Shown here: positions 23,930 through 60,951 of the stretch, one piece after another | Numbering within the stretch: the stretch's first letter is position 1 | Layout of the letters: every line of letters begins with the position of its first letter | DNA from: Pirellulales bacterium | GTDB taxonomy: Bacteria; Planctomycetota; Planctomycetia; Pirellulales; UBA1268 | Assembly (NCBI GenBank): GCA_041744595.1 | Contig: JBGTKO010000273.1 | Span: forward strand, 14,644-78,643 | DNA: 64,000 nt | Direction: 5' to 3' | Made by a program: the position numbers and the translations under genes | Notes under the pieces: model-generated | Seen by the model: only the letters and a program-made list of their open reading frames with translations | Database searches by the model: none | Told to the model about the DNA's origin: nothing

Positions 23930-23967
23930 TCAACCCATTGGCGGTGGGTTTCGCTTCGCGCAATACG

Positions 23968-39857: not shown

Positions 39858-39903
39858 AACGCACCTTTCATGATTGCAGGACGGGGCACCGCCCGGAGTG
39901 GCG

Positions 39904-41275: not shown

Positions 41276-41893
41276 TCATGCCAACCAGAATGCCCACCAT
41301 GCCGTCACGAGGAGCGTTCCACAGACCACGAGGAAGACGAGCAAATGCGTGAGTAATCGTTGGCTCCCATAGAGCGGAGGGGCCCCGGCCAGCGGAACCA
41401 CCTGGACCGGCAACGTGGGACGGTCCTCGCCAGGTCGGACGAAATGGGCATTCGTCCTGAGCCACGCTTCGAGCCGGTCCGGTTGATCCCGGAGGATGCC
41501 CCGAAAACCCATCAGGACGCCGAGGACATAGATATGAATCACGTCGGAAACCGGGAGAGAGGCCGCGATCTCGGCGTTCGAGAAGTACGCCGTCGCGCGG
41601 TGTCGCGAGCCAAAGAGATCGACCTCGAGTGCATGGTTTTCCCACCATGACCGTCCGGCCCACTCGACATCCACGATCAACATTTCGTCCACGAGCGCGG
41701 CCAGGGCAAAACTCGTCAACCGCCACTCATCGCTCCGCGGTCCCCGCAGCCGCGACTCTGCCGTGTCGAAGACACGCCGAAGTGCCGCCCGCTCGATCTC
41801 CGCCGACTGGGTCGCGCCTCGCTGGGCACGATCAACGAGTTCAATGATGCGACGCAGGAGCGGCAGCGTCGCGGCGGCGAATTCTGGATGCAT
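41276..41893 (-). CDS. tssL: TssL / DotU-family membrane protein
   Basis: DotU-like cytoplasmic domain (LAALVDEMLI, HIYVLGVLMGFRGILRDQPDRLEAW). Single C-terminal TM helix LLTHLLVFLVVCGTLLVTAWWAFWLA. No periplasmic OmpA/peptidoglycan-binding extension. Confidence 0.85.
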   Translation of the reverse strand: MHPEFAAATLPLLRRIIELVDRAQRGATQSAEIERAALRRVFDTAESRLRGPRSDEWRLTSFALAALVDEMLIVDVEWAGRSWWENHALEVDLFGSRHRATAYFSNAEIAASLPVSDVIHIYVLGVLMGFRGILRDQPDRLEAWLRTNAHFVRPGEDRPTLPVQVVPLAGAPPLYGSQRLLTHLLVFLVVCGTLLVTAWWAFWLA

Positions 41894-41914: not shown

Positions 41915-43381
41915 CTACCTCGGCACCGCAAAAAGCGCGAATTCGAGTGTCGCGACGCGGCCCTCGAATGTGACCTCGAGCCGCCGACGGCCCGCAAGCT
42001 GCTCAGGATTCAGGATCGAAGAATCCCTGACCCGAATGGCAAGATTTTGCGTCACTTGAACGGACTTGTACGCAGGCGAATCGGCACCGATTCTATAGTA
42101 AATCCACCCGCTGCTGGCAGGCAATGCCCGCGGAGCACGATCCGGAGCATGGAGCTCCAGCCCCGGTAGCCCCAGCCGGAACAATCGGTCCACCTCATCG
42201 CTGCTGCCGAGCTTCCAGTCGAGGTGCGCGTTACCCGAAAGAAGTCGGTGACAATCCTCCTCAGTGAGGTCGCCCCGAAGGACCCCCACATACATCTGCC
42301 AATCGGTCTGGAGCCATTTGGGCTCGAGCGACACCGAAAGCGAGGCAAGCCCACTCCCCAGGAAGTACCGCTGTTCGTATTCGAGTGCCGCAACGCGACC
42401 GATGAGCGCCTCAATCTTCAGTTTGACCGTCCGGAAAATGCCCGCCAAATCATCGTGATCGTAGGGGGGCAATTCATCGAGGAGCCGGCGTGGTTCAAAG
42501 ACTGCCAACTGGCCCACGACCCGACAGAGCTCGCCGTATGCGGTCCGCGGATGGATTCCAGGCGAGAACGCGATCACCCGCAGCACGGCTTGAGACTCGA
42601 GCAATTTCGAGAGCATCATGAGCCGGTCCAGATCCCCCGGCTCGGAGCTCGAAAAGCCGACACGCCGAGTCACGGCCTGTTCGGCAAGCACTTCCACCTT
42701 CCGGCTGATCAGGTCATAGGTGCCACGGACGATGTCCCTCCCGAGAGGAGGCCATGCGTCGATAGCGAGCAGCGGAGGGACATATTCTGGATCCAGCTCT
42801 GGTGAGCCTTCACGATTGCCCGCCCGCCTCACCTGAGCGATCGGAAGGAGTTCGAAGCCGGAGAGGTCGTCGGTCGATAGTTTCAGCACCACATTGAGTC
42901 GGCAGAACTCGACCTCTTGATCGTTTCCGCCAGCCGTTTCGTCCTGGAGCGATTGTCGCACAACGTGGGAGCGTGATCGGTCGAGCGGCCCAGGCGGTGC
43001 CACGTTTGCAGACGAGGGATCGAATCGGGGAACGGCGAGGTACACCCTCAAACGGTCCACGTCATTCAGTTCTTCGCCCAACGATGCCGCGAGCTTGGCC
43101 ACATCGTCGGCCGCTTGCCGCAGACCGAGCCGGTCGGGTTCTTGGCCAGGTTCGAGCCAGACGAGAGTTCCATCCCGAAGTCGTGCCTGGCAACTCCGGA
43201 GCTCAAACTGTCGGTTGGCGAGCGCACCGGGGTCAATCTCGAGTCGCACAATCCCGTAGCAGCACGGATCCGACGCCACGGTCGCCGCCGAAAGCCGCTC
43301 ATTCCACGACCTGTCATGGGCCTGGAAATGGTGGGGTCTGAGAAAGAGACCTTCCGACCAGTGAACAGGCAGATGACGCAT
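41915..43381 (-). CDS. tssK: TssK baseplate protein
   Basis: The ATG at 43381 gives MRHLPVHWSEGLFLRPHHFQAHDR, the canonical TssK N-terminus. 488 aa. The ORF upstream of this ATG is implausible. Confidence 0.9.
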   Translation of the reverse strand: MRHLPVHWSEGLFLRPHHFQAHDRSWNERLSAATVASDPCCYGIVRLEIDPGALANRQFELRSCQARLRDGTLVWLEPGQEPDRLGLRQAADDVAKLAASLGEELNDVDRLRVYLAVPRFDPSSANVAPPGPLDRSRSHVVRQSLQDETAGGNDQEVEFCRLNVVLKLSTDDLSGFELLPIAQVRRAGNREGSPELDPEYVPPLLAIDAWPPLGRDIVRGTYDLISRKVEVLAEQAVTRRVGFSSSEPGDLDRLMMLSKLLESQAVLRVIAFSPGIHPRTAYGELCRVVGQLAVFEPRRLLDELPPYDHDDLAGIFRTVKLKIEALIGRVAALEYEQRYFLGSGLASLSVSLEPKWLQTDWQMYVGVLRGDLTEEDCHRLLSGNAHLDWKLGSSDEVDRLFRLGLPGLELHAPDRAPRALPASSGWIYYRIGADSPAYKSVQVTQNLAIRVRDSSILNPEQLAGRRRLEVTFEGRVATLEFALFAVPR

Positions 43382-43639
43382 GGCTTCCAATGGCAGTCGC
43401 GGTTTGCCAGACGCGGCAGGCGAATGCCCGCAAGGCCATGACGGATGAAACGACGACGGATGAATCGACAGATCACAATCAGGGATGGTACCAATGCATC
43501 GGGACTCGGTAAACTCCCGCAGCATGCGGCACAGTGATTGAGTCGCTTATTCATCGCCAGCCCAGTTCCATCGGCTTTCCACTGCCTCGTCCACGTCATG
43601 GATTCCACATCGTTTGGACGCTCGCACGAGGCCGGCAGC
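43382..43639. promoter_or_regulatory. Divergent intergenic region between the tssK core operon (minus) and the giant-protein operon (plus)
   Basis: The non-coding gap is 156-285 nt, depending on the start chosen for the giant gene. Promoters are inferred from arrangement only; no motif is claimed. Confidence 0.35.
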
Positions 43640-46600
43640 ATGGCGGAGTCGGGCGAGCCGCGATCAATGAGTTGGCGGCCGGAGCAGCCATCGAACCGCC
43701 GTTGGCGGGGCGGGCGATGGTTCGCTATTGCCGGCCTGATCGTGGTTGTGATTCTCGTTGTGGTCCTGATCGTGAACCTCGTGCTTGCCCCACTCCACGC
43801 GTGGCGAACGGGGCTCGTGATGCTCGCGTTCGACGCCTATGAGCCGAGGATGTTCGAGCCGGTTCCCTTCTGCCGCGAGGACATCGCGGCGTTGTCTTCT
43901 CGGCTCGGCGGCGATGACGAGGCCGCCGGCATCCTTCCCCCACTCGAGTTCGAGGGGCTCGATTCGGCCGAGGTAGTCAGGGCTTCGCTCGGACCGCGGT
44001 GCGGGCAACTCGGCATGCGGCGGAAGGATGTGCTCGTGGCCTACGTTCGGGGCCAAACATTCGTGGTCCCGCCGCGGTTCAACACGGAGGGTAGCCCGCG
44101 GAATGACCCCTTGACTGGACGGCCCTGCCTGTTCGCAGCCGACTGTAGTGTTCGTGGACAAGTGGTCACTGGAGTCGTCCCGATCAGGGAGGTGGTCGAA
44201 GCGATCGGATCGGCCACGAACTACACGACATTGGTGGCGATCGATATGGGCAGCCTGGGATGGGATCCACGATTGGGAATCGTTTCGCCACTTGTGCCAG
44301 CGTGCCTTGATGATGAATTCACTCCGCCGCAGGAGCAGGCAACGTTTGCCAACTGGGTCATCGGATCCCACGACACGTTTGAAGCGTCCTGGGCCAGCGG
44401 CCCGGACAGGCGAACGTTTTTCTCACGGGCAATGGAACTGGCTTTGGCGGGAGAAGCCGACAAAGCCCCCTGGGGGGACCAGGATGGGATTGTCGAGCTC
44501 GACGAATTGGCCCGGTTCGTCACGGCTTTGACCAGCGAGTGGGTCAGCCGAGCGAGCGGGGGTCGGTACACCCAAAGACCCGTCGTTTGGAAGATCGGCA
44601 CGGGACGTGTCCCACTAGCGGCAATTCCCCAGGGAATCGCCATCGTGAGAGTCCAGCGGCTTTCGCCTCCCGAGTCCAAGCCCCTGAAGAACAAGCCGTC
44701 CGAGGCCCCGAAGGACGGCCCCGCGCCCACCACAACCAGTGCGATACCGGGCTGGCTGCTGAAAGGCCGCCGGCAGTTCCCAATGATGTCTGCAGCCCTC
44801 CTTCAGTCGGATTCTGGGAAGCCCGCGAAGAACGAGGGGGCGAAGAAGGAGCAGGACGATCAGAAGCAGGCGAATGACACGAAGGAGACGAGAGCCAAGG
44901 CCGAGCCACCAAAAGATGGCTCAGCGACGGTGCCGGCCGGCGGTTCGAAGGCTGCGACTGCCTCGACGGATCCTGGCGGAAAAGCGACCGCCGTCGATCC
45001 GAAAGAATCGATGCCAGCCGAGCCGCAACCCCCTCCGGTCCCGCCGACGCTTTGGGAGTTGGTGGATATTGGCACGCGGAGAACCGACGGGCCGGACTCG
45101 ACGGCTCTGCCGATCGACTATGCGTCTCACATCTGGAGGACTGTCGTCGCCCAATCGGCCGCCGTGACCGTGCGGCTTGACCGCGCGTCTGATGAGTCGG
45201 AACGCGAACAGGCCAGTCGTGGTCGTGACGGACTTTGGAACGGACTTGCAGAACTCTTCTCGCCGAAAGCTCTCGGGCTGGGCCCCGTCCCACCGGTAGA
45301 CGTGGTGACTGTTGTCGAAAGACTGAATCGAGCCAAACGGGCTGCCACGGCGGGAGGATTTTTTGATCGTTGGTCAGTGGCTCCAGCCAGATTTCGGACC
45401 GCGGTTGCCACTCGCAACGACACCGCTGAACGGCTCTTGGCCACCTCCGACCTGATGGCACGGGTCGCGCTCGGGGCTGGTACTCCCAGAATCGAGCCGC
45501 GAATCCTTCTTGACTGTAGCAGGCAGGTGGCCTCGCTTTCGACGGCGATTGCCCGGCTGGCCGACTTCGAAGAGGACGTGACACTGTCTCAATCCGACAG
45601 TCTGGAATCAATCAGTCGAGCCGTTGCCACGGAGCGGTCGTCACTCGATGCGGTTAACGCATCGATGGTCGAGGGAATGGTTGATCGCTCGGTTGCCACG
45701 GGCGTGTCCCTCGACGGCAACGTAGCCACGGCCGCCCTTCGAGTGCCTGGGCTCGGAGCCAAAACCCGTCGCTCGCTCTTTCCAGTGCTGGGTTCGGGAG
45801 AGTCACGGGAGATGGTCGCGGGAGTCTCACTGCTGACTCCTATTGGGCCTCTCGCCGTTGACACATCACCCCGACGGGTGTCCAGTGAAAGAGCAGAGAA
45901 TGTTCGCGCGCATTGTGACCTGCTGCTTCGGGCCATGGAGGCCGCCGGGTTGACGCCGATCGGTTCGGACCGTGTTCCAGGGCCGCTTGTCTGGCCTCTC
46001 GAGCGAATGGCAGCGGTTCGGCGAGCCGCCGAGCTCGTCACCAAGCCGCTGAACGATGGCGAACGAGTCAAAATGATGCTCTCGCTTGCCGGCCGGCTTG
46101 CTCATCTCTACGCCGAGATTGCCGACTCCGCCGACGGTGTTGCTCGTGAGACGCAAGAGCTTGCCGCCGTCGATCGCATAGCCTCGCTCTTTCGCGTGGT
46201 CAGCCACCGTGATGTGATGCGAATCGGGGAGCTCCCCGATATCCGTCTACCGCGTTGGCACAAACCGGATCGCCTCGGATTGCGGCTCGAATCAGTGGAG
46301 GACGGCTTTCACGACACCGATGCTCCGCTGGCGGTCACGGTTGTCACGGCCGGGGCGGCGATGCCTGCCGATGATGCCGTTGTCCGATTTCGGTACGACC
46401 CGGCCGATTTCACGCTCTCCACGACGTCCGGGGACCCGCTGCTCGTCGATCGCGTCTATCGGTCAGGTGACCTCCCCTTCCGTTCCGACGGGCTCGCACT
46501 CCACCTCACTGCAAACCGTCAGGCAAACACCGCATCCGATCGCCTGGATACGGAACTGACGATTATCGTCGAATCAGGGGGCCGCCGAGACGTGGCTTCG

Positions 46601-48583
46601 AAGCGATTCAGTCTGCCCGACGAGCGGTCGATACGACTGGCGGCTCGCCGCTTGCCCCTCATGATGGCGGCGGCTGAATGGACCTACTCGATGGCTCGAC
46701 CATCCCTGGGAGGAAGCCCATTAGAATGGCGGGAGGCACTCCTCCCTTTGACCGTGCCGGCAGGGCGACCCTCCGCCTTGGCAATGACCCTCGAGAATGG
46801 CGCGGAGATCGACCGCGAGGTGAGCGTCGCGGTGTATTCGATCCCGTCCGGCCCCGAACCGGGCAGTCGGGCTCGGGCGTGGCACCTCTTCCGGCAGCGG
46901 TTGCTCGAGGGTGCCGAGCCTTCGGCCAAACTCCTCGGCCGGATCGAATCGCTCATCGTACCTGCCAGTGGTGGCCAGTCGCTGATCGCTCTACCACCTC
47001 CCGCTCCGCCCGAGCCTCTTCCGCCGCCGCCAGAGGCCGGGCCGGCCGCAGGAGCAGCCCTGGAACTCGTGCCGCAGCCTGTTGGTCCAGACCTCGCCGT
47101 GGCGGTTCAGGAACGAACAAAAGGGGAGCCGCCTCGTTCTTGGCTCCATCGCGTCGGACTGCTGACCTCCCATCCCCGTGACGTGCTGGTTGCAACCGCG
47201 ACATGGCGCCGTGACACCAGGACGATTGCCATCGAGATCGGCCCGCGTGACGGTGCGCCGCTCACAGAGCTGACGCGATGCCGTCTTGTGCCACTGCCGG
47301 CGGCACCCGTCGCGGGGCAGCAGTCGATTGCCATCCGACGTGAGGCAGTTGTCCTGACGCCGGAAAGTCCCCGCCAGTCGATGCTCGCCGACTGGAACGG
47401 CGCGGAACGCGATGCACGTGCTTGGCTTGCGGTTTCCGTCGATGGATATCCCCGTGCCTTTGTGTTCGGTGTGGAATGTTCGGCTGCTTCTGCAGGGCAG
47501 TCCCAACAACCGCTCTCTGATTGGCGTGCGATCGCGATCCGTGAGCCTCGGCAAGCGGAACAGGAGCTCAAGGCACCGTTGCCGACAATCCCACTGACAC
47601 TTCAGGTAGACGCCCCTCCGGATTCGGCCGTCGCTCCCTTCACCGGAGACCGCGATACGACCGATGAGCTCCCGACCGCTCCCCTCCTTTCGGTCCTGCT
47701 TCGAGAGCGAGACCAGGAGGCAGGGCCAGCCCGATCCGAGGCCATCGTCTGGTCGGCCGCTGCGGATCGGCAGATCGAATTCGTTCCCGCGCCACCAAGA
47801 CCAGACGCAACGCTCGTCGTCGAACCACGGGTGACCGATTGGTCGATCGCCCCGTCCAGCAACGGGTATGTCGATGTTGATGTCCTGGTGGAGGCGCGCC
47901 TGAGCATCCCTGGCGTTCAGGCACCGTTGACCGACCGCCGCCGCCTTCGGCTCGACGGTAAGCCTCCGCGGATCGAACTGCCGCCCCTCATGAACGCCCA
48001 GGTCGGCCGTCCGCTGACCGTGCCTGTTCTCGTGCTCGATGATCCACGGGAGGCTTTCGGGGCAACGTCGGGGATCGACCTTCCGGGCGTTACGGGTGTG
48101 CAACGCGTGGACTGGGCGATCGACCTCGCGGGCACCGGCAAGCCCGAAGCCTGGCAGCCTGCGGTGGGGCTGGGTGAGGGACGGTACGAGCTTCGCGTCG
48201 ATACCAAGCAACTCCCGCCGGGCCGCCAGACTCCCGTCCTCGTACGGGCGGTCGATCGGGTCGGGAACATGGCGGAACCGTCGCGGGTCTGGATCGAGAC
48301 GCGGGCATTGGCCGCAAAAAATGGCATTCGGGGCCGCGTGATGCTCAACGGTCGCGGAGAGGCGGGCGTCAGCGTTCAACTCGATGGCCCTGCGGCCCCG
48401 GCTCCAACAACTTCTGGCAAGGACGGATCATTCCAGTTTGACCAACTTGATGCCGGCAGTTACACGGTGCGAGCCTCAGGGGCCGTTCGGAATCGTCTCT
48501 ACCGGGCGGACCCGCAGCCTGTGGTCGTCGATCCGCCGCCTGCCGAGCCTCCCCGCATCACGATCGAACTAAAGCCGAAGTGA
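43640..48583 (+). CDS. Giant single-pass membrane protein: degenerate caspase-like domain, long unassigned region, C-terminal CarboxypepD_reg-like domain
   Basis: The start is uncertain: TTG 43538, ATG 43598, ATG 43640 (preceded by GAGG) or ATG 43667. Basic stretch then TM helix (RRWRGGRWFAIAGLIVVVILVVVLIVNLVLA). The caspase-fold-like segment DVLVAYVRGQ..TLVAIDMGSLGW..FFSRAMELALAGEADKAPWGDQDGIVELDELARFV lacks the catalytic His and Cys. C-terminus GIRGRVMLNGRGEAGVSVQLDG..DGSFQFDQLDAGSYTVRA. Confidence 0.8.
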   Translation: MAESGEPRSMSWRPEQPSNRRWRGGRWFAIAGLIVVVILVVVLIVNLVLAPLHAWRTGLVMLAFDAYEPRMFEPVPFCREDIAALSSRLGGDDEAAGILPPLEFEGLDSAEVVRASLGPRCGQLGMRRKDVLVAYVRGQTFVVPPRFNTEGSPRNDPLTGRPCLFAADCSVRGQVVTGVVPIREVVEAIGSATNYTTLVAIDMGSLGWDPRLGIVSPLVPACLDDEFTPPQEQATFANWVIGSHDTFEASWASGPDRRTFFSRAMELALAGEADKAPWGDQDGIVELDELARFVTALTSEWVSRASGGRYTQRPVVWKIGTGRVPLAAIPQGIAIVRVQRLSPPESKPLKNKPSEAPKDGPAPTTTSAIPGWLLKGRRQFPMMSAALLQSDSGKPAKNEGAKKEQDDQKQANDTKETRAKAEPPKDGSATVPAGGSKAATASTDPGGKATAVDPKESMPAEPQPPPVPPTLWELVDIGTRRTDGPDSTALPIDYASHIWRTVVAQSAAVTVRLDRASDESEREQASRGRDGLWNGLAELFSPKALGLGPVPPVDVVTVVERLNRAKRAATAGGFFDRWSVAPARFRTAVATRNDTAERLLATSDLMARVALGAGTPRIEPRILLDCSRQVASLSTAIARLADFEEDVTLSQSDSLESISRAVATERSSLDAVNASMVEGMVDRSVATGVSLDGNVATAALRVPGLGAKTRRSLFPVLGSGESREMVAGVSLLTPIGPLAVDTSPRRVSSERAENVRAHCDLLLRAMEAAGLTPIGSDRVPGPLVWPLERMAAVRRAAELVTKPLNDGERVKMMLSLAGRLAHLYAEIADSADGVARETQELAAVDRIASLFRVVSHRDVMRIGELPDIRLPRWHKPDRLGLRLESVEDGFHDTDAPLAVTVVTAGAAMPADDAVVRFRYDPADFTLSTTSGDPLLVDRVYRSGDLPFRSDGLALHLTANRQANTASDRLDTELTIIVESGGRRDVASKRFSLPDERSIRLAARRLPLMMAAAEWTYSMARPSLGGSPLEWREALLPLTVPAGRPSALAMTLENGAEIDREVSVAVYSIPSGPEPGSRARAWHLFRQRLLEGAEPSAKLLGRIESLIVPASGGQSLIALPPPAPPEPLPPPPEAGPAAGAALELVPQPVGPDLAVAVQERTKGEPPRSWLHRVGLLTSHPRDVLVATATWRRDTRTIAIEIGPRDGAPLTELTRCRLVPLPAAPVAGQQSIAIRREAVVLTPESPRQSMLADWNGAERDARAWLAVSVDGYPRAFVFGVECSAASAGQSQQPLSDWRAIAIREPRQAEQELKAPLPTIPLTLQVDAPPDSAVAPFTGDRDTTDELPTAPLLSVLLRERDQEAGPARSEAIVWSAAADRQIEFVPAPPRPDATLVVEPRVTDWSIAPSSNGYVDVDVLVEARLSIPGVQAPLTDRRRLRLDGKPPRIELPPLMNAQVGRPLTVPVLVLDDPREAFGATSGIDLPGVTGVQRVDWAIDLAGTGKPEAWQPAVGLGEGRYELRVDTKQLPPGRQTPVLVRAVDRVGNMAEPSRVWIETRALAAKNGIRGRVMLNGRGEAGVSVQLDGPAAPAPTTSGKDGSFQFDQLDAGSYTVRASGAVRNRLYRADPQPVVVDPPPAEPPRITIELKPK

Positions 48584-48888
48584 CGTCTGGGCCGGCCGTT
48601 GGAATGCCCACCATCGCCAGGCGTGACCCGATGACCGATACGGCCGGCGCAGACGGAGATCTTGTCTCCCCGACCAAGTTGAATTCCGACAAGGCCGATA
48701 CCCTGATTGGGTTTCTGGGGTAGCCGATGGTCTGCGCGGGCAACAAAGGTGGACAAAATGTCCTACCCGCCGTCGCACGGTGCGCGGAGTCGATTCTCCG
48801 TGTAGGACCCGACGAAAGCGGCCTCAGGCACTCCTTCGCGGGCCGCGAAGCACCGCTTCGGCGGGATGCCACGCAGAGGAGACAGAGC

Positions 48889-50019
48889 GTGTGGGGTCGC
48901 AGCACCATCGGGAGTCTCGTCATGGCGGCAGCCATGGTTGCCGGCGCCTGTCGTGTCTCCCATGGGCAGCAGCCGACACTCTGGAGCTTTCTCGGAATTG
49001 GCGCGGCACAAAACTCTTCCGATCCAGCCATTGCGGCTGCCGCCAAGGCAAAAGCGGCGAAACACAAAATATGCTGTCAAAAGAAAGCCCTCCGGTACCT
49101 AGCCTCGATGGGATGCACCCCAGAGCACCCTGAGGTCGCCGAGGCGATTCTGGCTGCCATGGGGGATCCCGAAGAACCGGTTCGGTACGAGGCAGTGAAG
49201 GCGGTCCTTCAGACTGCTGGTGACTGTATGTCTCCCGAGCAGAAGCGGGCGATGCGGCAGGCACTGGGGTTCCATGAGTACTGTTCCATGCAAAAACAGA
49301 AGTGCGAGAAGGCCATCCATGCCTGCCTCGAACGGCTGTGCGGAAAAGCGGCGCCTAAGCCTCACAAAAAACTCTCGGACATGCTGCCTTTCCGGCAGTC
49401 ATGCGAGGACCCTTGCAAAAAAGAGCCGGATCATTGCGCTCGACGGGGAATCTGCTGCACTCCGGAGATTCGCGAGAAACTCCGGCAACTCGCATATGGC
49501 CGCGATGAAGCTGGCTGTTTTCTCGAACCCAGTGAACGGGTGCGGACCGCAGCCGAGCAGGCACTCGAGGCGTGCCAAGCCTGCTGTGGGAAGCGTGGTT
49601 CAGCGTCGGGAGGTCAGGGTGGGGCGGGGGCGAACGCCTGGCGGGAAATGCCTCCAGCGGAGACCCACGAAACAGACGCCACGAGGGCTATCGACGGCAG
49701 CCGTTCACCGGCACCGGGTTGGCCCGGCATATCCGTGGAGTGCGAGCGAGCGCACGGAGGCGTATCACCGATGGGTCCGTTCGGGATTCCTCATATACGC
49801 GAGATCGACGACCGTCCGTTGAACCAGAATCCGATGAACCAGAATCCGGTCCCCACTCCGCCTGAACCGACTTTGGAGTTTCCAGCGACTTCTCCCGTGG
49901 AGCCGTTGCCGCAGCCGCCGCCTACGCCTCCGCCGAGTCAATCCGCCGAGGCTGCCGATCCCTCAAGCGCACCCCAGACCTGGTTCCGGACTTCGTCCCT
50001 GTTCCGCTGGAGACGCTAG
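48889..50019 (+). CDS. Secreted Cys-rich HEAT-like protein with Pro-rich tail
   Basis: A GTG at 48889 preceded by GGAG gives a plausible signal peptide (WGRSTIGSLVMAAAMVAGACRVSHG). Alternative starts are ATG 48727 and ATG 48922. About 18 Cys (KICCQKKALRYLASMGC, CCTPEIREKL, ACQACCGKRG). HEAT-like DPEEPVRYEAVKAVL. Tail NQNPMNQNPVPTPPEP..PQPPPTPPPS. Confidence 0.65.
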   Translation: MWGRSTIGSLVMAAAMVAGACRVSHGQQPTLWSFLGIGAAQNSSDPAIAAAAKAKAAKHKICCQKKALRYLASMGCTPEHPEVAEAILAAMGDPEEPVRYEAVKAVLQTAGDCMSPEQKRAMRQALGFHEYCSMQKQKCEKAIHACLERLCGKAAPKPHKKLSDMLPFRQSCEDPCKKEPDHCARRGICCTPEIREKLRQLAYGRDEAGCFLEPSERVRTAAEQALEACQACCGKRGSASGGQGGAGANAWREMPPAETHETDATRAIDGSRSPAPGWPGISVECERAHGGVSPMGPFGIPHIREIDDRPLNQNPMNQNPVPTPPEPTLEFPATSPVEPLPQPPPTPPPSQSAEAADPSSAPQTWFRTSSLFRWRR

Positions 50020-50051
50020 GTGTTCGTCGCTTCCCGACGCGCCTTCCCGCC

Positions 50052-53000
50052 ATGAGCGATCCAACAGAACGATCCGACGATCCTCAGCCACCTCGCTGGC
50101 AAACGGGCCCGCGACGAGGTCCGACGTCATCCCCTCGCGGGACTGGAGAGTCCTGGCGAGTTGCCTCCGAGCAGTCGAGCGGACGGCGAAGCGTGTGGGT
50201 CTGGTTGGGGCGGATCCTCGCGTCCGTTCTTTCCGTGGTCTTGCTGGGGACGCTCATCTGGCTCCTTCTCTCGCTGCGTCATCCCGTGCCGCTCGTCGGC
50301 GGCTTTGCAACAGCGTACCGGGCCCCGCTACCGCCGCGGGCATTGACAGCCGAGGATCGGAGAACCCTGGAGCGGCTCGCGACGGCGGGGGGTGGCCTCT
50401 TTGAACCTCCGTCAGTTGCCTGGTTCGATGCCAGTGATCAACTGGCCAACTCGGCACAGACGCGGCCATGGGACACCCTCACGAAATCCGTTCGGATGGT
50501 TCGGCCAGGCGGCCCAGACAACGACATGGTTGTCGTGTACCTCGGGATGGTCGGCACACTCGACCATGAGGGACAACCCTGCCTCGCCATGCCTGCCGAT
50601 GGGGAAGGTCCAGGCATCCGTGTGGCGGAGCTCCTTACCGACCTGCGGGATGCTACTCCGGCAAGTGCGGGCCTCCTCGTGGTCCTGGATGGGTGTGAGG
50701 CTGGCCTCGGCTGGCCGCTCGGCATTGCTGACGGCTCTTTCGCGCCCGCGGTCGAAGCGATGGCCCGCTCGAGCACGATCCCGCGGACGTGGGTGCTGGT
50801 GTCTGCCGGCGCGGGCGAGCGATCGCACGGTGACCCGGAAGATGGTGGCAGCCTCTTTGCGACGTCTTTCGCCGAAGCGATCGTTGGAGCTGCTGATCGT
50901 GCTCCGTTCGGAAACGGTGATGGTCTGGTGCAGTTGCGGGAGCTTGCCACGTTTCTCAGCAGTGAAGTCCCGCGGCGGAGCCGGCTCCAGTTTGGCAGCA
51001 CCCAGACGCCCCTTTTGATTCCGGCGTTCAATGATGCGCGGGGCGAAGATCCGGCCATCGCATGGGCGATCGACCAACCAGCCACCGGACTGGTGGGCGG
51101 CCTTCGCCGTTGGTTTTGGGGCTCATGGGGGCTCGAAACGGACGCATCCAGTCGTCGTTCGGCAAGCGTCAACTCGATCGACGCGCGAGGTCCTCGCTGG
51201 TGGCTCGCCGAGCGGTGGGCTGCAGCCTCGCGACTTCGTGCCGAAGCGGTCCATGGCCATCCGAATCGCTGGCAACGGTACCAGCAGCTCTTGATGCGGG
51301 CGGAGCATTTGCTGCGGTGTGGTGCCGCAGCCAGCGAGGAGCGGATTCGCACGGAAACCCTCGTCGAGCGGCTGGAGGTGGAGCTAAAAACCGCAACGCT
51401 GGTCGATGCCTCACGGCTTCCCTCGGTACGGATCAATGAGTGGAGCTCGACCCCTGCCGAGATGGAAATCGCGGCTGCGTGGCGGCGGGACTTCGCGGAG
51501 ACCTTGGCGTCCGTCCAATCCACGCCACAGAAACTCGTGCCGCCATCGACGTATCCCAGGGCGGAATGGATCGGTCGGTGTCGAGCCGCGTGCGATTGGC
51601 TTGAAATCGAGGCTCCCCGGAATCCGCTGACACCAGACGGTCTTCAGGCGTGGCTGGCGAGCCTGGGCCGATCGGGGCCCGATCGGCTTCCGGAACCGAT
51701 TGAGGTTCATACCGCACGCATGGTCGCGAGGCATCTCGACGACGGTGTCTGGCTGTCAGCACCCGATCTGCCAGGTCGACTCCTGCGTCTGGTTGGCATG
51801 TCACGGCGGGCAGCACTCCCCGACGACGTGAGGAGCGACCGCGCCATCGCGCTTGTCGCGAACCGGAAGGCCCTCGACGAGGAACTTCGCCGAGCGATCG
51901 ACTTGATGCTCCTGGCCGATCCCGACTCGGTTTCCGAGGCGCGGCAGGTGGCGGCGATGCTCGAGTCCCGCTACGAGGAGATCATTCGTCTGGGAGTGGC
52001 TGCCTCAACCACCGTCCGATTGCTCGACACGGTCGATGATGAGCTTCCCTGGCTTGCGGCCTGGTGGGTCAGTGAAGCCCGTGCTGCCGTTCGAGGGGAT
52101 GGGGCTCAGCCGCCCGCTGTCGAATGGTTGGAGTTGCTCGACTCGGTCGCTGATCTTCGACAGGTTGTTGATCGGAGCCTCGGCGTGCGAGCAGAAGAAG
52201 CAGTGATCGCTTCGATTGACGAAACGGTCGCGGTGCTCGACGAGGCCCGCAGTCGCACCGAGGAAGCTCTCCAGAGCCTCACTGGCGGCTACGAGGCGGC
52301 CTGTTCCGAACTGGTCAACGCCGCGTCGGATAGCCCCGTCACCCTCGGGCGGATCCGCCGTATCCTCGATATCCCGCTGCTCCGTGGCCGACGACGGATT
52401 GCCTTATGGGAGCGAGCAGAAGCCCTGCGGGTCATTCCTGTTCCGGCACCGAGCCCGACGGAAGGCACGCTGCCGGAACCAGATCTTCGGACGGCAACGG
52501 CCGGCTGGATTTCTTGGAAGGACACGGTTGTCCATCCGGTGGTCCCGATCCTCGCGGGTGACGTCGGGGGCGCAGCGTCGCTTCCTACGGAAGCGGACGA
52601 TGTGGCGGTCGCCGTGGCCCGACAAGTCGATGCCATCAATCGACAGGTTTCGCTCCTCCCCGAAACACTCGGCCGCTTGGGGAAGGAGCGGGCCGCTGCG
52701 ACGCTGGCCGATCCCGACAAGACTCGAGCCGATCCCTATCTCGAGTCGGGTGATCTCCTCGCGAGGCGACTTGCTTCAGTGACCTGCTTCCGGAACGTGC
52801 CGGATGTGCCATCGTCGGTTCATGTCAACTTTGTCGCAGCTTGGCATGATCGGCTGACGACAGCCGCCTCCGATGCGATCGACGATTTCTGGACGGGCGT
52901 CGAACCTGGGGACGGACCTTGGTACGCCGAGACAGCCGAGGAATTTCTCACGGCAGCTTCCGAACTCGTCAGTCGTTCCGGTGTGTCCCACGGCACGATG

Positions 53001-55193
53001 ATCCGCCGGGCAGTCGAGGCCCGTCTCCGAAGCCTGTCCGCGGTCGGCATGTTCGGCACCGTCAAGGTCGCTCCCGAGGTGCTCACCCTCTATCCGTCGC
53101 TGATCGCTGCCGATTCCCCGACAAGCCGCACTTCGCTGCGGACGACCCGGGGAGTTCCATCCGGGCTGGCGGCCTTGTGGTTCGCCGAATCACTCAGTGG
53201 CATCCCCATCGGTATGGTTCACCGAGTCGGAAATCGTTCTCCCGACGCGGTCGATATCTGGGTGCCGTTGAATGTTGAAGCAGATGGGGGCGAGTCTGGG
53301 GTGTCCTGGAAGGTGGTCGCCGCGCCGACGCTGCCCGGAAATGTGAGCGGACCGAAGGTCATCGACATGATCGTTTGGTTTCGAGGGCACCGCGTCGTGG
53401 TTCCTCTCCCCGTGCTCACAGCGGGAGATGTCCGCACTGTCGAGTGGCAACCGGCCGAACCACGGCCGCCGACGGTCACCGTACGTGGGACCGTGCCCCG
53501 CCAGCGTTCTGTCGCGATTGTCTTCGACTGTTCGGGCAGCATGGGGCAGCGGCTCCTCGACGGTCGCACGCGACTGACAGCGGGCCGCGATGCACTCATG
53601 GGCGTGCTTGAATCCATGTCCAAGGAGGGGGGATGGAACGTATCGCTTTGGCTCTACGGTCATCGGACCGAGTGGTCTCGGAGCCGGGGCGGTCGATACA
53701 CGGCTGGGTTTACGGAGGAGGGCAAGCGGCAGCGGGATACAGCAATCGCCGATGGCAAGCCGTTTCGTTTGGTCCCCGGCAACGATGTCGAGCGAGTCCT
53801 CGACATGCAGCCACTTTCACCGGTTCAGCTCATGCAGATCCGAACCATTCTTGACAGTCAGCGGCCTGGAGGCGAGACACCTCTGTACCGCGCGATCGAC
53901 GAGGTTTTGCGGATCGACTTCGCGACCGCCAATCCGGCACCGGGGCATGTGGTGGTCGTGACCGATGGGGCAAACGAACAGAGCGGCGGCACCATCACGA
54001 CGGCTTCTGACGTGCAGCGGTCCCTGTCACTCGTCAACGTCGGTCGTCGGGAGGAGGATCTCATCCGTATCGATGTGATCGGTTTCGACATGCCTTTTGG
54101 CGGGGACGGCAGGCAGATTCGGATGCAAGATCTCCAGTGTATGGCGGAGGAGAGCAAGGGGGCCTACTTCGACGCGACCGATCCGCGGCGTCTCACGGCG
54201 GCTCTGGAGCGATCGATGCGGTCGCTCCGTTGGCAAGTCCAGAGCCCTGTAACGGGGCGATTGACAGCTTCCTTGGGTGACCCTATCACGCTCCCTCTCC
54301 CCGCCCGAGGCTCTGCCAACACCTACGATGTGCAGATGGAAGCGGGCCAGTTTCCCCGACGTGTGATCGTGTCAGGCGGTGAGGCTTTGGAATTGTTCTT
54401 GGCCACCTCCGGTCGGCTCGAGTTTCGTCGCTATACGGGGGGCTTCGAGCAGGGGCTTCGTGATTCCCATGCCGACCTGCCTGACCCCGCGGATCCAACG
54501 CGGCGCTGGTTCATCGGGGCGCACATGACCCACCGGGAAGGGGCCGATGTCCGATTTCCGATCTCGGTCCAGAACAACTCGGCCGATGGATTTTCGCCGC
54601 GGCCAACGGCCGCGTGGATCGAGGTCACTCCGCGAGGAGATGGAGGGCCGATCGAGCCAGCATACGTGTTCTACGATTTGACGTTCGAGCCGGGGCGACC
54701 AGTTCCGGTGCTGCAACTTCGGGCGACCGACTGGCCTGCCGGTGCCACGATGGCTGAGGTGCGAGCCTGGGTTCGATTTATCGACTGCCCGCCGACGATC
54801 ACGGTCCCGCTATCCTCACTCCCGATCGCGACCGATTCTGTTGTGCCCGTTCCCGGGCTCGAGGGCACCTCCCTTCGCATCCGCGTATCGCGCCACACCG
54901 GCGACAATGAGCTGCGTGTGACGGTCATCGAAGAGCATCCCCCTGCGGTGGATCAGTCAACGCGAAGGCTACGAATCGAAGTGCGGCCCGGTTGCCGGCA
55001 TGCGGTCCATGTCTCCGAACCTGGGGCCGCGAGGATCCGACACGAATTCGTCGTCGGACTTGTCGATGGGTTGCTTCCAGGTGACGTATCCCTCCTGGTA
55101 ACCGATCGCGAGGACATCATTCGCAATGCGGTGGGACCACGTTTCCGTGGTGGGCCAAGCGAACCCTTGATCGTTCCCGTGTCACCGCGGTGA
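50052..55193 (+). CDS. Giant single-pass membrane protein, related to 43640..48583 through a paralogous N-terminal domain: caspase-like domain (Cys kept, His not evident) and C-proximal vWA domain
   Basis: TM helix VWVWLGRILASVLSVVLLGTLIWLLLSL. Caspase-like DMVVVYLGMVG..GLLVVLDGCEAGLGW..LFATSFAEAIVGAADRAPFGNGDGLVQLRELATFL is colinear with the first giant. vWA with intact MIDAS (VAIVFDCSGSMG, GGETPLYRAI, VVVVTDGANEQSG). Confidence 0.85.
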   Translation: MSDPTERSDDPQPPRWQTGPRRGPTSSPRGTGESWRVASEQSSGRRSVWVWLGRILASVLSVVLLGTLIWLLLSLRHPVPLVGGFATAYRAPLPPRALTAEDRRTLERLATAGGGLFEPPSVAWFDASDQLANSAQTRPWDTLTKSVRMVRPGGPDNDMVVVYLGMVGTLDHEGQPCLAMPADGEGPGIRVAELLTDLRDATPASAGLLVVLDGCEAGLGWPLGIADGSFAPAVEAMARSSTIPRTWVLVSAGAGERSHGDPEDGGSLFATSFAEAIVGAADRAPFGNGDGLVQLRELATFLSSEVPRRSRLQFGSTQTPLLIPAFNDARGEDPAIAWAIDQPATGLVGGLRRWFWGSWGLETDASSRRSASVNSIDARGPRWWLAERWAAASRLRAEAVHGHPNRWQRYQQLLMRAEHLLRCGAAASEERIRTETLVERLEVELKTATLVDASRLPSVRINEWSSTPAEMEIAAAWRRDFAETLASVQSTPQKLVPPSTYPRAEWIGRCRAACDWLEIEAPRNPLTPDGLQAWLASLGRSGPDRLPEPIEVHTARMVARHLDDGVWLSAPDLPGRLLRLVGMSRRAALPDDVRSDRAIALVANRKALDEELRRAIDLMLLADPDSVSEARQVAAMLESRYEEIIRLGVAASTTVRLLDTVDDELPWLAAWWVSEARAAVRGDGAQPPAVEWLELLDSVADLRQVVDRSLGVRAEEAVIASIDETVAVLDEARSRTEEALQSLTGGYEAACSELVNAASDSPVTLGRIRRILDIPLLRGRRRIALWERAEALRVIPVPAPSPTEGTLPEPDLRTATAGWISWKDTVVHPVVPILAGDVGGAASLPTEADDVAVAVARQVDAINRQVSLLPETLGRLGKERAAATLADPDKTRADPYLESGDLLARRLASVTCFRNVPDVPSSVHVNFVAAWHDRLTTAASDAIDDFWTGVEPGDGPWYAETAEEFLTAASELVSRSGVSHGTMIRRAVEARLRSLSAVGMFGTVKVAPEVLTLYPSLIAADSPTSRTSLRTTRGVPSGLAALWFAESLSGIPIGMVHRVGNRSPDAVDIWVPLNVEADGGESGVSWKVVAAPTLPGNVSGPKVIDMIVWFRGHRVVVPLPVLTAGDVRTVEWQPAEPRPPTVTVRGTVPRQRSVAIVFDCSGSMGQRLLDGRTRLTAGRDALMGVLESMSKEGGWNVSLWLYGHRTEWSRSRGGRYTAGFTEEGKRQRDTAIADGKPFRLVPGNDVERVLDMQPLSPVQLMQIRTILDSQRPGGETPLYRAIDEVLRIDFATANPAPGHVVVVTDGANEQSGGTITTASDVQRSLSLVNVGRREEDLIRIDVIGFDMPFGGDGRQIRMQDLQCMAEESKGAYFDATDPRRLTAALERSMRSLRWQVQSPVTGRLTASLGDPITLPLPARGSANTYDVQMEAGQFPRRVIVSGGEALELFLATSGRLEFRRYTGGFEQGLRDSHADLPDPADPTRRWFIGAHMTHREGADVRFPISVQNNSADGFSPRPTAAWIEVTPRGDGGPIEPAYVFYDLTFEPGRPVPVLQLRATDWPAGATMAEVRAWVRFIDCPPTITVPLSSLPIATDSVVPVPGLEGTSLRIRVSRHTGDNELRVTVIEEHPPAVDQSTRRLRIEVRPGCRHAVHVSEPGAARIRHEFVVGLVDGLLPGDVSLLVTDREDIIRNAVGPRFRGGPSEPLIVPVSPR

Positions 55194-55376
55194 AAATGGT
55201 GAGCTTTGCGCTCGGCAAAATCGCCTGGGCCATCGACCAACTCGACAAGAAGGGGCCGCCCAAGCCGCGCCCGCCTCGCATCTTGCCAGCATGACTCGAA
55301 CGATCTTGACGGCTGCACGTCCGGGTCGCTAATCCTCCAGGCGTTGCCATGCCCCGGCTTTGCCCCCCAGGCCGCC

Positions 55377-56417
55377 ATGAAGTCGAGACAGCGAGGCTGT
55401 GCCGCACCAACCCTGTCTTGGCTGCCTCGGCGGTCACGGCCTCCGGTATGTCTCCATCTCTCGGCAGCAGGGCTGATGGTTTTGTCCCTGGGGTTCCGCG
55501 CGGCCGTTCGGGCTAACGACATCGATCTCCTGCCGCCGGTCATGGCCGACCTCGTGGAACTGCCACCGTCTATCACGGAGCAACGGGGAGCCTGGACCGA
55601 TCCTGCAGTCTCGAGCCCGCGGCCATGGACGCGGTTGCTCGCCACCATCATGCCCGTGAGCGAGGACCGCTGGCGGTCACTCGAGCCGACGACCATTCGG
55701 GATCCAGGGCCCGATACGGCAGATTTCCCAAATAGCCCCTTTACGCTTCCTCGGGGTGGCATCTACATCGAGACGAGCCCGGTCTATTACGAGAGTGCCG
55801 TTCGAGACGCGAGCCCCGCCACCTACACATGGGAGTACCTGCTTCGTTTCGGACTGACCGACAACTTCGAGTTTCGACTCTACGGCAACGGGCTGACCGT
55901 CCTCATTCCACCCGTTGGTGCGCCGCCGGGCAGTGGAGACGTCGGTTTTGCTCCGCTGGTGTTCGATGGCAAAGTTCATCTCTGGGATCAGCCGAAGGGG
56001 GGCTGGATGCCGGCCACTGGCATCGAGGTGTATGTTCAAAGTGATTTCGCCAGCGAGTTCCTCCAGCAGGGCACGCAGCCTGGTGTGATGATGCTCTTCG
56101 ATTGGAAGATCACCGAGTCGGTCACATTCGAGTTGAACGCCGGCGTTGTAAGTCAAGTGACTCGGCGAGACACGCTTGTGTACTCCGAGGCTATCCAGTT
56201 CTCGCTGGGCCGTGACTTTGGCGAGGATCTCGAGCTTTTCATTCATGGATTCCAAGGACAGGCGGCCTTGCCGCGAGGCGTGTCCGAATCGGCGATCGGC
56301 GGGGGATTCAAGCGGTCCTTCGGTGACCGCTTGGCCCTCTTTGGCAGTTGGAATGCCGGATTTGATCGGGTCGGTCCAGCCACGATCTTCTACGTGGGGG
56401 GCGCCGGCGCGTTCTAA
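55377..56417 (+). CDS. Putative outer-membrane beta-barrel protein (MetA-pathway/transporter-like family)
   Basis: ATG at 55377 in frame within ORF 55206..56417, with a signal-like N-terminus. SPFTLPRGGIYIETSPVYY, alternating beta-strand pattern (YLLRFGLTDNFEFRLYGNG, GIEVYVQSDF, FELNAGVVSQV). C-terminal aromatic ending YVGGAGAF. Confidence 0.65.
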   Translation: MKSRQRGCAAPTLSWLPRRSRPPVCLHLSAAGLMVLSLGFRAAVRANDIDLLPPVMADLVELPPSITEQRGAWTDPAVSSPRPWTRLLATIMPVSEDRWRSLEPTTIRDPGPDTADFPNSPFTLPRGGIYIETSPVYYESAVRDASPATYTWEYLLRFGLTDNFEFRLYGNGLTVLIPPVGAPPGSGDVGFAPLVFDGKVHLWDQPKGGWMPATGIEVYVQSDFASEFLQQGTQPGVMMLFDWKITESVTFELNAGVVSQVTRRDTLVYSEAIQFSLGRDFGEDLELFIHGFQGQAALPRGVSESAIGGGFKRSFGDRLALFGSWNAGFDRVGPATIFYVGGAGAF

Positions 56418-56461
56418 GCCTGCCTGAAATCCACCGATGGCTCTCGTCCGCTCACGGCCCA

Positions 56462-57355
56462 GTGCCCACGTTCATCGTACTCCTCATGGCCGTCCTCTGG
56501 ACGCGGTGTCCCGGTCGACTCTCCAGCTTCATGGAGCCATGGACCTTCGTGCTCCTTCTCGGCACGGTCGCTGCAACAGGCATTCCACAGGATGCATCAG
56601 GACAGGCTCCCTTGGAAGATCTCTTCGAGTGGCGAGCCCGGGATCCAAACGAATCATTCGAGTCTCCGGCGAGACTCCTCAAGCCGGCCTGGCTCGCGGA
56701 CCACGGCGCCGGGATCGTGGGCTGGGTGGAGTTCGGAATCGGCAGCAACAGCCTGGGCAGTGACTTTAATGGCCCCGTCGCGCTCAATGATCGGGCCTGG
56801 CAGGGAATGCTCCAGCAGCTCGGACTGATCGGCCATAAACCGCTCACCGATGAATTCGCATGGGGAGCCCGAGTCGATCTCCTCTATGGCACAGACTGGT
56901 GGACCGCCGTCGCCCGCGGCTCGAGAGCGAGGATCGTCAACGTCAGTTCGCCTTCGCCCTGACCACCGGCAACGAATACACGCCGCGAATCGACGACTCC
57001 GGCCAGCCGGCTCCGCCAAGCGTCGGCAATCTGACCATGTACACCGTCTATGGCGTTGTCGGGATCACCGAGCGGATCACCTGTGCCATCGAGCATTCGA
57101 ACGCCTGGCAGTTCCATGCCGACACCGGGTTCGCCAATGCAGGACAGCTCCCCGGGCTTGCCCAGGGGCCTGAATTGGGTCGCCAATCCCAATTGGACCG
57201 TCCGGCCACAGCTCCGCTACGACTGGTTCACACCCGACGCGTATGGTTCTGGCGCCTTGCCATTCGGTACGATCAGCACGCGAACGAATGGCGTGGTCAC
57301 GGGAGATGCTTATGGGCAGCTTTACGGTGGCTGTGACGTCGTCGCCCAGTTCTAG
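56462..57355 (+). pseudogene. Porin-like outer-membrane beta-barrel gene disrupted by two compensating frameshifts or stops
   Basis: Frame of 56462: signal peptide, then WVEFGIGSNSLGSDFNG and ARVDLLYGTDWWTAVARG, then stops at 56960 and ~57032. The same frame resumes with GLNWVANPNWTVRPQLRYDWF...GGCDVVAQF (terminal Phe). The middle part (~56940-57165) reads sensibly only in the frame of ORF 56860..57336 (FAFALTTGNEYTP..LTMYTVYGVVGI). Confidence 0.45.
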
Positions 57356-57376
57356 CCAATGGCGGACTGTGGGCGT

Positions 57377-57916
57377 TCATTCTGCCGCAACCACATCGAC
57401 CTCCATCGCTGCAAGTCGTTTGTAGATGTGGAGTTGGTCTTTGAGGAGCCAACCGTCGAAACCGAGTCGCTCGATGGGCACCCACAGGGCGACCCAGCCA
57501 GCGATCACGAACGCTTCCCCCACGATGTCATTGAGGTAGCTGTCGGGATAGAGTCGGCTCAACACGGAGTGGAGGGTCAGGAGGATGGTCATCATGGTCA
57601 GTCCGAGGGAAAGCCAACGGATCATCCGGATTCTGTTTCGTTTGTGTTTCCGTTCCAGCAAGCCGGCCTCGTAGCTGAAGAAGTTGCGGACGGCTTCCTG
57701 TGTCTCGGCCTCGGTCGCCTCGGGGTCCGTGCCATCGGTCACGCTGACCTGGAGGCAGAGCGGCGCCTTCGCCGGCGCGTCAGACGCCCATTGGACGATG
57801 TGCTCGACAGCACGGGGATCGAGATCCCTCTGACGAAAGGGGGAAGGGTCGAGGGCGCTATAGAGTGCATCGAGGGAGTCCACGCGGACGTCGATACGAA
57901 AGGGTTTGTGATCCAT
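57377..57916 (-). CDS. Hypothetical two-TM membrane protein downstream of the Ca2+/H+ antiporter gene
   Basis: 179 aa with a soluble N-terminal half. TM helices IRWLSLGLTMMTILLTLHSVL and IVGEAFVIAGWVALWVPI. The overlapping plus-strand ORF has an implausible composition. Confidence 0.55.
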   Translation of the reverse strand: MDHKPFRIDVRVDSLDALYSALDPSPFRQRDLDPRAVEHIVQWASDAPAKAPLCLQVSVTDGTDPEATEAETQEAVRNFFSYEAGLLERKHKRNRIRMIRWLSLGLTMMTILLTLHSVLSRLYPDSYLNDIVGEAFVIAGWVALWVPIERLGFDGWLLKDQLHIYKRLAAMEVDVVAAE

Positions 57917-58028
57917 CGAGACAGGCTACGCGGGGTACATCATGCATGAAGGAACGACAGAGATCTGCTGCCAACGCCGCCTCGTGCAATGCCAGCACCC
58001 GGAGTTCCCCGCCTGGCTGAACGGGCAC

Positions 58029-60575: not shown

Positions 60576-60584
60576 GGCACGGGC

Positions 60585-60884: not shown

Positions 60885-60951
60885 CGTCTTTCTCTCGCGT
60901 ATACCGTCTCGCGACCTGACCGGTCTCTGGGCTCAACACGTCATCGCCACT

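Follow-up and report, generated by a model that had tools for sequence, protein, structure and literature searches.

Paired giant pseudo-caspase membrane proteins as candidate envelope components of a planctomycete type VI secretion system with a truncated TssM

How can a type VI secretion system (T6SS) cross the cell envelope when its TssM stops just after the last transmembrane helix and no TssJ is recognised beside it? The question is raised by a locus of a Pirellulales bacterium, which we analysed in a stretch of 64,000 nucleotides (contig JBGTKO010000273.1 of assembly GCA_041744595.1, positions 14,644 to 78,643, forward strand; G+C ~63%), here called the window. Pfam searches identified a full T6SS gene set at about 16,000-43,500 of the window. 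Divergent from its tssK gene lie the genes for two very large membrane proteins, giant 1 (G1) and giant 2 (G2), with a Cys-rich protein (Mid) encoded between them and a predicted outer-membrane beta-barrel protein encoded after them. A sequence-only reading made earlier had proposed that these four genes form one unit and replace the missing TssJ/TssM envelope complex. We found that the pairing of the giants with T6SS loci that carry a short TssM recurs across Planctomycetota, and for this reason the two giants are strong candidates for a third T6SS envelope complex.

The TssM of the window has 449 aa, with predicted transmembrane helices at residues 27-45, 68-86 and 424-442, and ends seven residues past the third helix. 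In Pfam it matches nothing but the cytoplasmic IcmF-related_N domain (PF14331, 1e-13). The open reading frame (ORF) thus has the three helices and the IcmF-related_N domain of the TssM/IcmF family with no large domain past the third helix, and is best described as a truncated family member predicted to lack the periplasmic domain. All of the 38 TssM relatives were only 398-527 aa long, which points to a short TssM as the rule in this clade. TssL (205 aa) has a C-terminal transmembrane anchor at residues 180-198 and no periplasmic extension. No match to a TssJ-type Pfam family was found among the scanned ORFs of the window, which were those of 100 aa or more, and Mid, when considered as a TssJ, had no conserved lipobox in the alignment of its homologues. 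The homologues of tssK encode 488 aa and the window ORF is 48 codons longer, so the likely start of tssK is Met49 (nt 43381). This start leaves a divergent intergenic gap of 258 nt between tssK and G1.

We followed the conservation of this arrangement in both directions. In the forward scan with G2 one genome per species was taken, resulting in 64 loci, and tblastn and iterated hidden Markov models (HMMs), built on HMMER's own alignments, were applied to their ORFs. Nearly all of these loci were from Planctomycetota (Pirellulales, Planctomycetaceae, Isosphaeraceae, Gemmataceae and Singulisphaera). T6SS genes were seen in 25 of the 64 loci fetched with G2, and most of the others were located on truncated contigs. 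In Pirellulales the genes tssM-tssL-tssK face G1-(Mid)-G2, and the order with Mid was kept around G2 relatives with 46% and 37% identity to G2 (P0002 and P0007, respectively). In Isosphaeraceae and Gemmataceae a G2-like gene is followed directly by a G1-like gene; this pair was found beside VgrG and/or tssM-tssL-tssK in three loci (L047, L059 and L060), and in a Gemmata metagenome-assembled genome (MAG; L062) the giants abut tssB/C/E/F. In Singulisphaera sp. GP187 (L047; NZ_FSRB01000002.1: 1801344-1824937) the order is VgrG, DUF6931, G2-like, G1-like, tssM (538 aa), tssL and tssK, with a VWA domain in the G2-like protein, a C-terminal CarboxypepD_reg domain in the G1-like protein and the N-domain only in TssM.

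For the reverse test, metagenome loci were fetched via the short TssM alone, and a contig was evaluable if it extended past the 5' end of tssK. A giant was found beside tssK in all of the evaluable metagenome contigs (30/30). Two further locus types (L074-L077, fetched via P0019 and P0037) also had a giant adjoining tssK in every case, and in these loci G2 comes directly after G1 without Mid between them. As judged from gene neighbourhoods, the giants are tightly linked to short-TssM T6SS loci.

Some of the records deserve a comment of their own. The Singulisphaera sp. GP187 locus, which has an IS110-family transposase at its edge, is from an apparent isolate genome and is a possible experimental model. 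Six MAG loci titled 'Candidatus Kuenenia' (L015, L016, L019, L020, L024 and L028) had a G+C content of 65-68%, which we take to be unlike Candidatus Kuenenia, and two records, one under the title Alcaligenaceae (L049) and one under Solirubrobacteraceae (L073), contain planctomycete-type giants; these titles are probably labelling or binning errors. In seven MAG records of the MFD series (L034, L036, L038, L041, L043, L055 and L073) the giant genes were split into overlapping ORFs, for which indel errors in the assembly are a more likely explanation than real pseudogenes.

Both giants share a simple layout. G1 has 1,647 aa, the length also given in its protein database entry (P0050), and consists of an Arg-rich tail of 29 residues with an SWR motif, one strongly hydrophobic transmembrane helix (residues 30-48, nt 43727-43783) and more than 1,590 residues beyond it that are predicted to be periplasmic. 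G2 has a tail of 54 residues, also Arg-rich and with an ESWR motif, one transmembrane helix (residues 55-73, nt 50214-50270) and about 1,640 predicted periplasmic residues after it. An (S/G)W(R/K) motif is kept in the tails of both giants about 20-30 residues before the helix and may be a docking site for a cytoplasmic part of the T6SS. From the positive-inside rule we infer that the giants have their N terminus in the cytoplasm (N-in) and their bulk in the periplasm. A word-indexed search found 40 homologues of G1 (1,457-1,788 aa), almost all of which share its tail and helix layout, and 11 relatives of G2; in both sets nearly all proteins are 1,450-1,790 aa long and unnamed. When 1.84 billion representative proteins were scanned with an HMM profile of G2 residues 76-1140, 974 clusters (50% identity) were detected at E<=1e-30; the best 150 of these 974 clusters were mostly 1,600-1,800 aa long, and their match began at about residue 75-90. 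Judged by their sequences, the giants belong to a large, uncharacterised family that is uniform in size and topology.

The N-terminal regions of the two giants matched each other in BLASTP (E=2e-7, 32% identity over 144 aa), and an HMM of the N-domain of one giant matched the other family at 1e-38 to 1e-57. These scores are better than chance and indicate a real paralogy of the N-domains. Past the N-domain, the profile-profile comparison of G2 residues 76-1140 with G1 residues 470-1647 gave a probability of only 26% (hhalign) with the match in the helical parts, and paralogy is not established there. These results agree with the sequence-only reading on most of what it had stated about the region: two giants of about 1,650 and 1,713 aa with a basic N terminus, one transmembrane helix, a predicted N-in orientation and more than 1,550 residues outside the cytoplasm; about 300 paralogous extracytoplasmic residues at the N terminus and no obvious similarity in the remainder; a position divergent from tssK at a distance of 156-285 nt depending on the start; and a neighbouring T6SS in which, among the scanned ORFs, the periplasmic part of TssM and TssJ are missing.

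In structure searches with Foldseek, the best match of the modelled G2 N-domain was Sf-caspase-1 (1m72; E=5.8e-5, target TM-score 0.58), followed by caspase-4, MALT1 and metacaspase-9, and one homologue gave a Pfam Peptidase_C14 match (1.2e-3). The model thus places the shared N-domain in the caspase fold (Peptidase C14), resembling the caspases, metacaspases and paracaspases of clan CD. Unlike these proteases, it has no conserved His-Cys dyad; it is predicted to lie in the periplasm close to the membrane, and about 1,300 more residues are fused to it. The dyad positions are occupied by V167 and C215 in G2 and by neither residue in G1, and both His and Cys are present in only six of the 131 distinct N-domains of the family. 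Because the dyad is not conserved, we read the N-domain as a pseudo-caspase, and an active caspase was rejected as a candidate on the same ground.

The remainder of G1 starts with a Pro/Lys/Ala-rich linker of low complexity (residues ~340-470). The AlphaFold2 model of residues 470-1647 (predicted local distance difference test score, pLDDT, 74.5) begins with about 395 residues in helices, after which comes a series of immunoglobulin-like (Ig-like) beta-sandwiches. The model matched ectodomains of cadherin, DSCAM, alpha-2-macroglobulin and SdrD in Foldseek (E=3e-9 to 1e-5). The C terminus (residues 1563-1614) resembles the CarboxypepD_reg or prealbumin-like fold; the Pfam match (PF13620, 1.7e-6) was below threshold in the window protein and passed it in the Singulisphaera orthologue. 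In the G2 model (residues 76-1140; pLDDT 72, predicted TM-score 0.65) a helical stretch of about 620 residues is followed by an Ig-like sandwich, and this region had only weak STAT-like and Ig-like matches. A VWA domain (PF00092; 3.5e-5 and 24.5 bits, just above the cut-off of 23.8) follows in G2 and was matched in 8 of 10 homologues, with the residues of its MIDAS motif (D1159, S1161, S1163, T1276 and D1305) invariant in the alignment. The C-terminal region of G2 contains invariant motifs that are specific to the family, such as FSPRP..W, and one such pattern was used for finding loci. The domains of the giants are binding and spacer modules and not enzymes.

The two smaller genes proved to be less constant than the giants. 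Mid probably starts at GTG 48889, which is preceded by GAGGAG. In the alignment with 12 homologues the N-terminal helix resembles a signal peptide, the motif TLWSFLGI and clusters of Cys are conserved, and the tail is rich in Pro; the window protein has 21 Cys residues and a HEAT_2 match (4.4e-4) below the Pfam threshold. Mid was missing or moved in L011, L014, L017, L022 and L074-77, with none between G1 and G2 in L011, L014, L022 and L074-77, and by this distribution it is a frequent but dispensable companion of the giants. The beta-barrel protein (probable start ATG 55377) matched Phenol_MetA_deg (PF13557) at 7.8e-6, with 26.5 bits against a cut-off of 22. No homologue of it was found in 126 related loci (tblastn and phmmer for L001-L073, phmmer for L074-L126). 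In L001 and L002 the ecsC gene (61444-62493 in the window) directly follows G2, whereas in the window it is located about 6.2 kb further on. The stretch between them (55194-61443) contains the barrel gene, small ORFs and a Na/Ca exchanger gene (58029-59270) and, being missing from L001 and L002, is a variable insert. The barrel was for these reasons rejected as a member of the module and is, by gene content, an unrelated neighbour of the giants. A scan of 43300-57500 found no promoter-like sites, and terminator-like sites were at or below the shuffle expectation.

The comparative genomics that the sequence-only reading had called for supported its proposal in part and divided its four-gene unit. 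Its descriptions of Mid as a secreted Cys-rich HEAT-like protein and of the last gene as a predicted outer-membrane barrel were sustained, whereas the four genes are not one conserved unit: the giants recur with the short-TssM T6SS as a linked core, Mid is optional and the barrel is dropped. The fold search found caspase and Ig-like folds in the giants and no TssM-like fold among the top 50 matches listed.

Features of the window discussed in the text (positions in nt of the 64,000-nt stretch)
Feature	Position	Strand	Basis or note
G1	43640-48583 (ORF from 43538)	+	start ATG 43640, 1,647 aa
G1 tail motif, residues ~9-13	43664-43678	+	(S/G)W(R/K), kept in both giant families
G1 N-terminal caspase-fold domain, residues ~55-335	43802-44644	+	paralogy to G2; fold from the G2 model
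G1 helical region, residues ~470-864	45047-46231	+	AlphaFold2 model md0e17458fa23, whose residues 1-395 are helical
G1 beta-sandwich (Ig-like) series, residues ~882-1647	46283-48580	+	AlphaFold2 model, Foldseek
Mid, secreted Cys-rich HEAT-like	48889-50019 (ORF from 48727)	+	Pfam (sub-threshold), alignment of 12 homologues
G2, 1,713 aa	50052-55193	+	ORF, topology prediction
G2 tail motif, residues ~33-36	50148-50159	+	(S/G)W(R/K), kept in both giant families
G2 N-terminal caspase-fold domain, residues ~76-340	50277-51071	+	model m4697ccb8886c, Foldseek
G2 helical region (~381-998), then Ig-like beta-sandwich (~1002-1123)	51192-53420	+	AlphaFold2 model
G2 VWA domain with MIDAS-type residues	53511-54197	+	Pfam VWA
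G2 conserved C-terminal region, residues ~1390-1713	54219-55190	+	alignment
Outer-membrane beta-barrel, Phenol_MetA_deg family	55377-56417 (ORF from 55206)	+	Pfam PF13557
Hcp	16045-16611	-	Pfam
ClpV	17386-20097	-	Pfam
DUF3540	20383-20958	+	Pfam
PAAR-like	20817-21461	+	Pfam
VgrG	21617-23257	+	Pfam
DUF2169-pentapeptide fusion, 1,069 aa	23362-26571	+	Pfam
Pentapeptide-repeat protein, 660 aa	26568-28550	+	Pfam
TssG	30433-31842	-	Pfam
TssF	31560-33434	-	Pfam
TssE	33447-34004	-	Pfam
TagJ/ImpE	34019-34831	-	Pfam
TssC, two copies	34875-36467 and 36492-37994	-	Pfam
TssB	37991-38674	-	Pfam
TssA	38718-39959	-	Pfam
TssM, short	39904-41253	-	Pfam IcmF-related_N PF14331, 1e-13
TssL (DotU)	41276-41893	-	Pfam DotU, 2e-17
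TssK	ORF 41915-43525	-	Pfam T6SS_VasE, 2.4e-70

Taking these results together, we lean, with limited confidence, towards G1 and G2, often with Mid, being dedicated envelope components of the Planctomycetota-type T6SS that replace the periplasmic domain of TssM and TssJ in trans. For the more far-reaching proposal, a third architecture of the T6SS membrane complex in which TssL and a TssM cut after its third helix form the docking core and the two pseudo-caspase giants the trans-periplasmic part, we see about an even chance. In such a complex, TssL and the short TssM would provide the docking core in the inner membrane and cytoplasm, and the (S/G)W(R/K) tails and transmembrane helices of the giants would contact it. 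The pseudo-caspase domains would pair G1 with G2 near the inner membrane, and the helical and Ig-like regions would reach across the periplasm and peptidoglycan. The MIDAS of the G2 VWA domain and the prealbumin-like C terminus of G1 would bind a partner in the outer envelope, possibly via Mid, and this binding would fix and open the envelope at the site where the baseplate docks. An architecture based on giants may have arisen as an adaptation to the planctomycete periplasm, which is unusual and of variable width.

Several observations weigh against a role of the giants as the envelope complex. We infer this role from gene neighbourhood, topology and domain make-up alone. The N-in topology is itself a prediction, and the models of the giants are of moderate confidence (pLDDT 72-75) and were built on shallow alignments of 10-11 sequences. 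None of the top 50 Foldseek matches listed for the G2 76-1140 and G1 470-1647 models was a TssM, and no TssM or TssJ Pfam family matched any of the four proteins at E<=1. The barrel is not conserved, and no outer-membrane component of the module was recognised. Four loci (L029, L032, L057 and L061) contain a full-length giant and no T6SS gene within flanks of about 4-10 kb per side; in L032 it is flanked by polyketide synthase genes on one side and by planctomycete cytochrome genes on the other, and in L057 and L061 it lies among housekeeping genes. By HMM alone, L043, L049, L051 and L055 look like these four loci. Finally, the linkage was scored on loci and contigs, and a canonical TssJ/TssM may be encoded elsewhere in a genome, or giants may occur in genomes free of a T6SS. 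PDB sequence searches with G1 and G2, using single sequences and profiles, likewise gave no TssM and only marginal VWA and prealbumin-like matches, and NCBIfam had no family for G1, Mid, G2 or the barrel at E<=1, with Pfam giving generic domains only. Because no sequence or fold match to TssM was found, a substitution for TssM/TssJ by the giants would be one of analogy and not of descent.

The same gene linkage would be seen if the giants were accessory (Tag-type) factors, that is, a periplasmic sensor or regulator licensing the firing, or a tether that draws the inner and outer membrane together at the firing site in cells with a periplasm that may be unusually broad; in both cases the needle would cross without a TssM/TssJ-like channel. 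The T6SS kinase PpkA of Pseudomonas has a periplasmic VWA domain, domains of the pseudo-caspase and VWA kinds typically serve for binding or as scaffolds, and no channel-like element was recognised in the models of the giants. Accessory factors also often offset variation in the core T6SS (PMC13584744). However, the cytoplasmic part of the giants comprises only about 30-55 residues without a signalling domain, two proteins of about 1,650 aa whose length is constant throughout the class would be costly for a regulator, and the linkage is specifically to the tssK-tssL-tssM block, where the membrane-complex genes are located. We consider an accessory role, the main rival, possible but rather unlikely. 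We give still less weight to the giants being general envelope or surface proteins, which would serve the architecture of the periplasm, adhesion or matrix binding and lie near the T6SS without functional dependence on it. The four loci without a T6SS gene in their flanks, the size of the family (974 clusters) and the combination of VWA with tandem Ig-like domains, typical of adhesins, would fit such proteins. Against them stand the reverse linkage in every evaluable contig and in two further locus types and the embedding of the giants in the T6SS loci of distant families, where, although the gene order is rearranged, they are located between VgrG and tssM/L/K or abut tssB/C; an N-terminal anchor in the inner membrane would also be unusual for a surface adhesin.

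It seems very improbable to us that the giants are active periplasmic proteases, protease traps of the alpha-2-macroglobulin type or T6SS cargo or effectors. The caspase fold of the N-domain, the Foldseek matches to MG domains of the alpha-2-macroglobulin family, the vicinity of VgrG in some loci and a size comparable with bacterial alpha-2-macroglobulins could be taken in this sense. The dyad, absent from both window giants and rare in the family, as given above, speaks against proteolysis. An alpha-2-macroglobulin identity was rejected, as the CxEQ thioester motif is absent from G1, Mid and G2 and the MG-domain matches are generic Ig-like ones, no better than those to cadherin and Ig domains and with low TM-scores. 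Effectors differ from strain to strain, whereas the giants keep an N-terminal transmembrane anchor and a uniform length and are conserved across orders.

Other features of the T6SS region were also recorded. The window has two tandem tssC paralogues, each with VipB and VipB_2 domains, and the duplication was also seen in relatives (e.g. L084, L088 and L092); it seems to be a fixed feature of this T6SS type. The VgrG neighbourhood (20383-28550, plus strand), with its DUF3540, PAAR-like, DUF2169-pentapeptide fusion and pentapeptide-repeat proteins, probably encodes spike-loading adaptors or cargo. Between the pentapeptide genes and tssG an ORF of 255 aa (29653-30420, plus strand) had a weak, sub-threshold PEP-CTERM match at its C terminus (E=0.0044). 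Upstream of the T6SS cluster lies an operon of MoxR AAA+, DUF58, BatA and VWA-GATase1-like genes (2491-13719, plus strand), which includes a gene for a TPR/PQQ-repeat protein of 1,420 aa (3906-8168).

If the giants do form the trans-periplasmic part of this T6SS, the periplasmic part of the machinery would be evolutionarily replaceable piece by piece, and a large uncharacterised family of 974 clusters would gain a function. The giants would then also serve as markers for the T6SS in genomes of Planctomycetota, and the finding would bear on how contractile weapons work in bacteria whose periplasm is enlarged. Such a T6SS may escape annotation rules that depend on TssJ and a full-length TssM. 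The N-domain, as modelled, is a further example of a caspase-fold pseudoenzyme that serves structurally in a protein predicted to be periplasmic.

Envelope crossing by a T6SS has so far been worked out for two membrane complexes only, TssJLM and, as the sole known alternative, the TssNQOPR of Bacteroidota. A review of T6SS accessory factors from 2026 names only the TssJLM and TssNOPQR membrane complexes and does not mention Planctomycetota (PMC13584744). On a planctomycete T6SS envelope complex, the full-text literature that we searched, a library that is not exhaustive, went no further than noting the presence of T6SS genes in the phylum. The giants are strong candidates for an alternative T6SS envelope complex that is not described in the searched literature. 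Compared with the TssJ-TssL-TssM complex of T6SS-i, the window keeps tssK, tssL and tssM adjacent, and its TssM retains the three transmembrane helices and the IcmF-related_N domain. It differs in the loss of the TssM periplasmic domain and in having no TssJ among the scanned ORFs, and the giants show neither sequence similarity to TssM/TssJ nor fold similarity in the two modelled regions. Accessory factors that accompany altered core parts have been described, for example TsmK in loci lacking tssJ and TagL with an 'ancestral' TssL (PMC13584744). There too a variation in the core T6SS is accompanied by a dedicated extra gene in the locus, whereas the proteins are unrelated and, in the planctomycete loci, the whole periplasmic domain of TssM is gone and not merely TssJ or a module that binds peptidoglycan, and the companions are two giant paralogues.

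The closest parallel in architecture is the TssN-TssQ-TssO-TssP-TssR complex of the Bacteroidota T6SS-iii, a set of lineage-specific envelope proteins in loci without the canonical periplasmic parts (PMC10781749). In this complex TssQ and TssO are single-pass proteins with elongated helical periplasmic regions, TssP is Ig/PKD-like and TssR contains a vWA domain (PMC10781749). Modules of these kinds (a transmembrane anchor and helical, Ig-like and VWA regions) are united in G1 and G2, and this resemblance to TssNQOPR makes a role of the giants as envelope components plausible. The two systems also differ. Bacteroidota have no tssJ, tssL or tssM, whereas the planctomycete loci keep TssL and a truncated TssM; in the latter just two proteins of about 1,650-1,700 aa carry the modules in fused form, a caspase-fold domain is present that is not reported in TssNQOPR, and no lipoprotein was identified. 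The NCBIfam and Pfam libraries, which presumably hold TssN-R models, gave no TssN/O/P/Q/R family match for the four proteins. Common descent with TssNQOPR is thus not indicated at the family level, and the likeness, drawn by analogy, suggests a possible way of working for the giants and not a shared ancestry.

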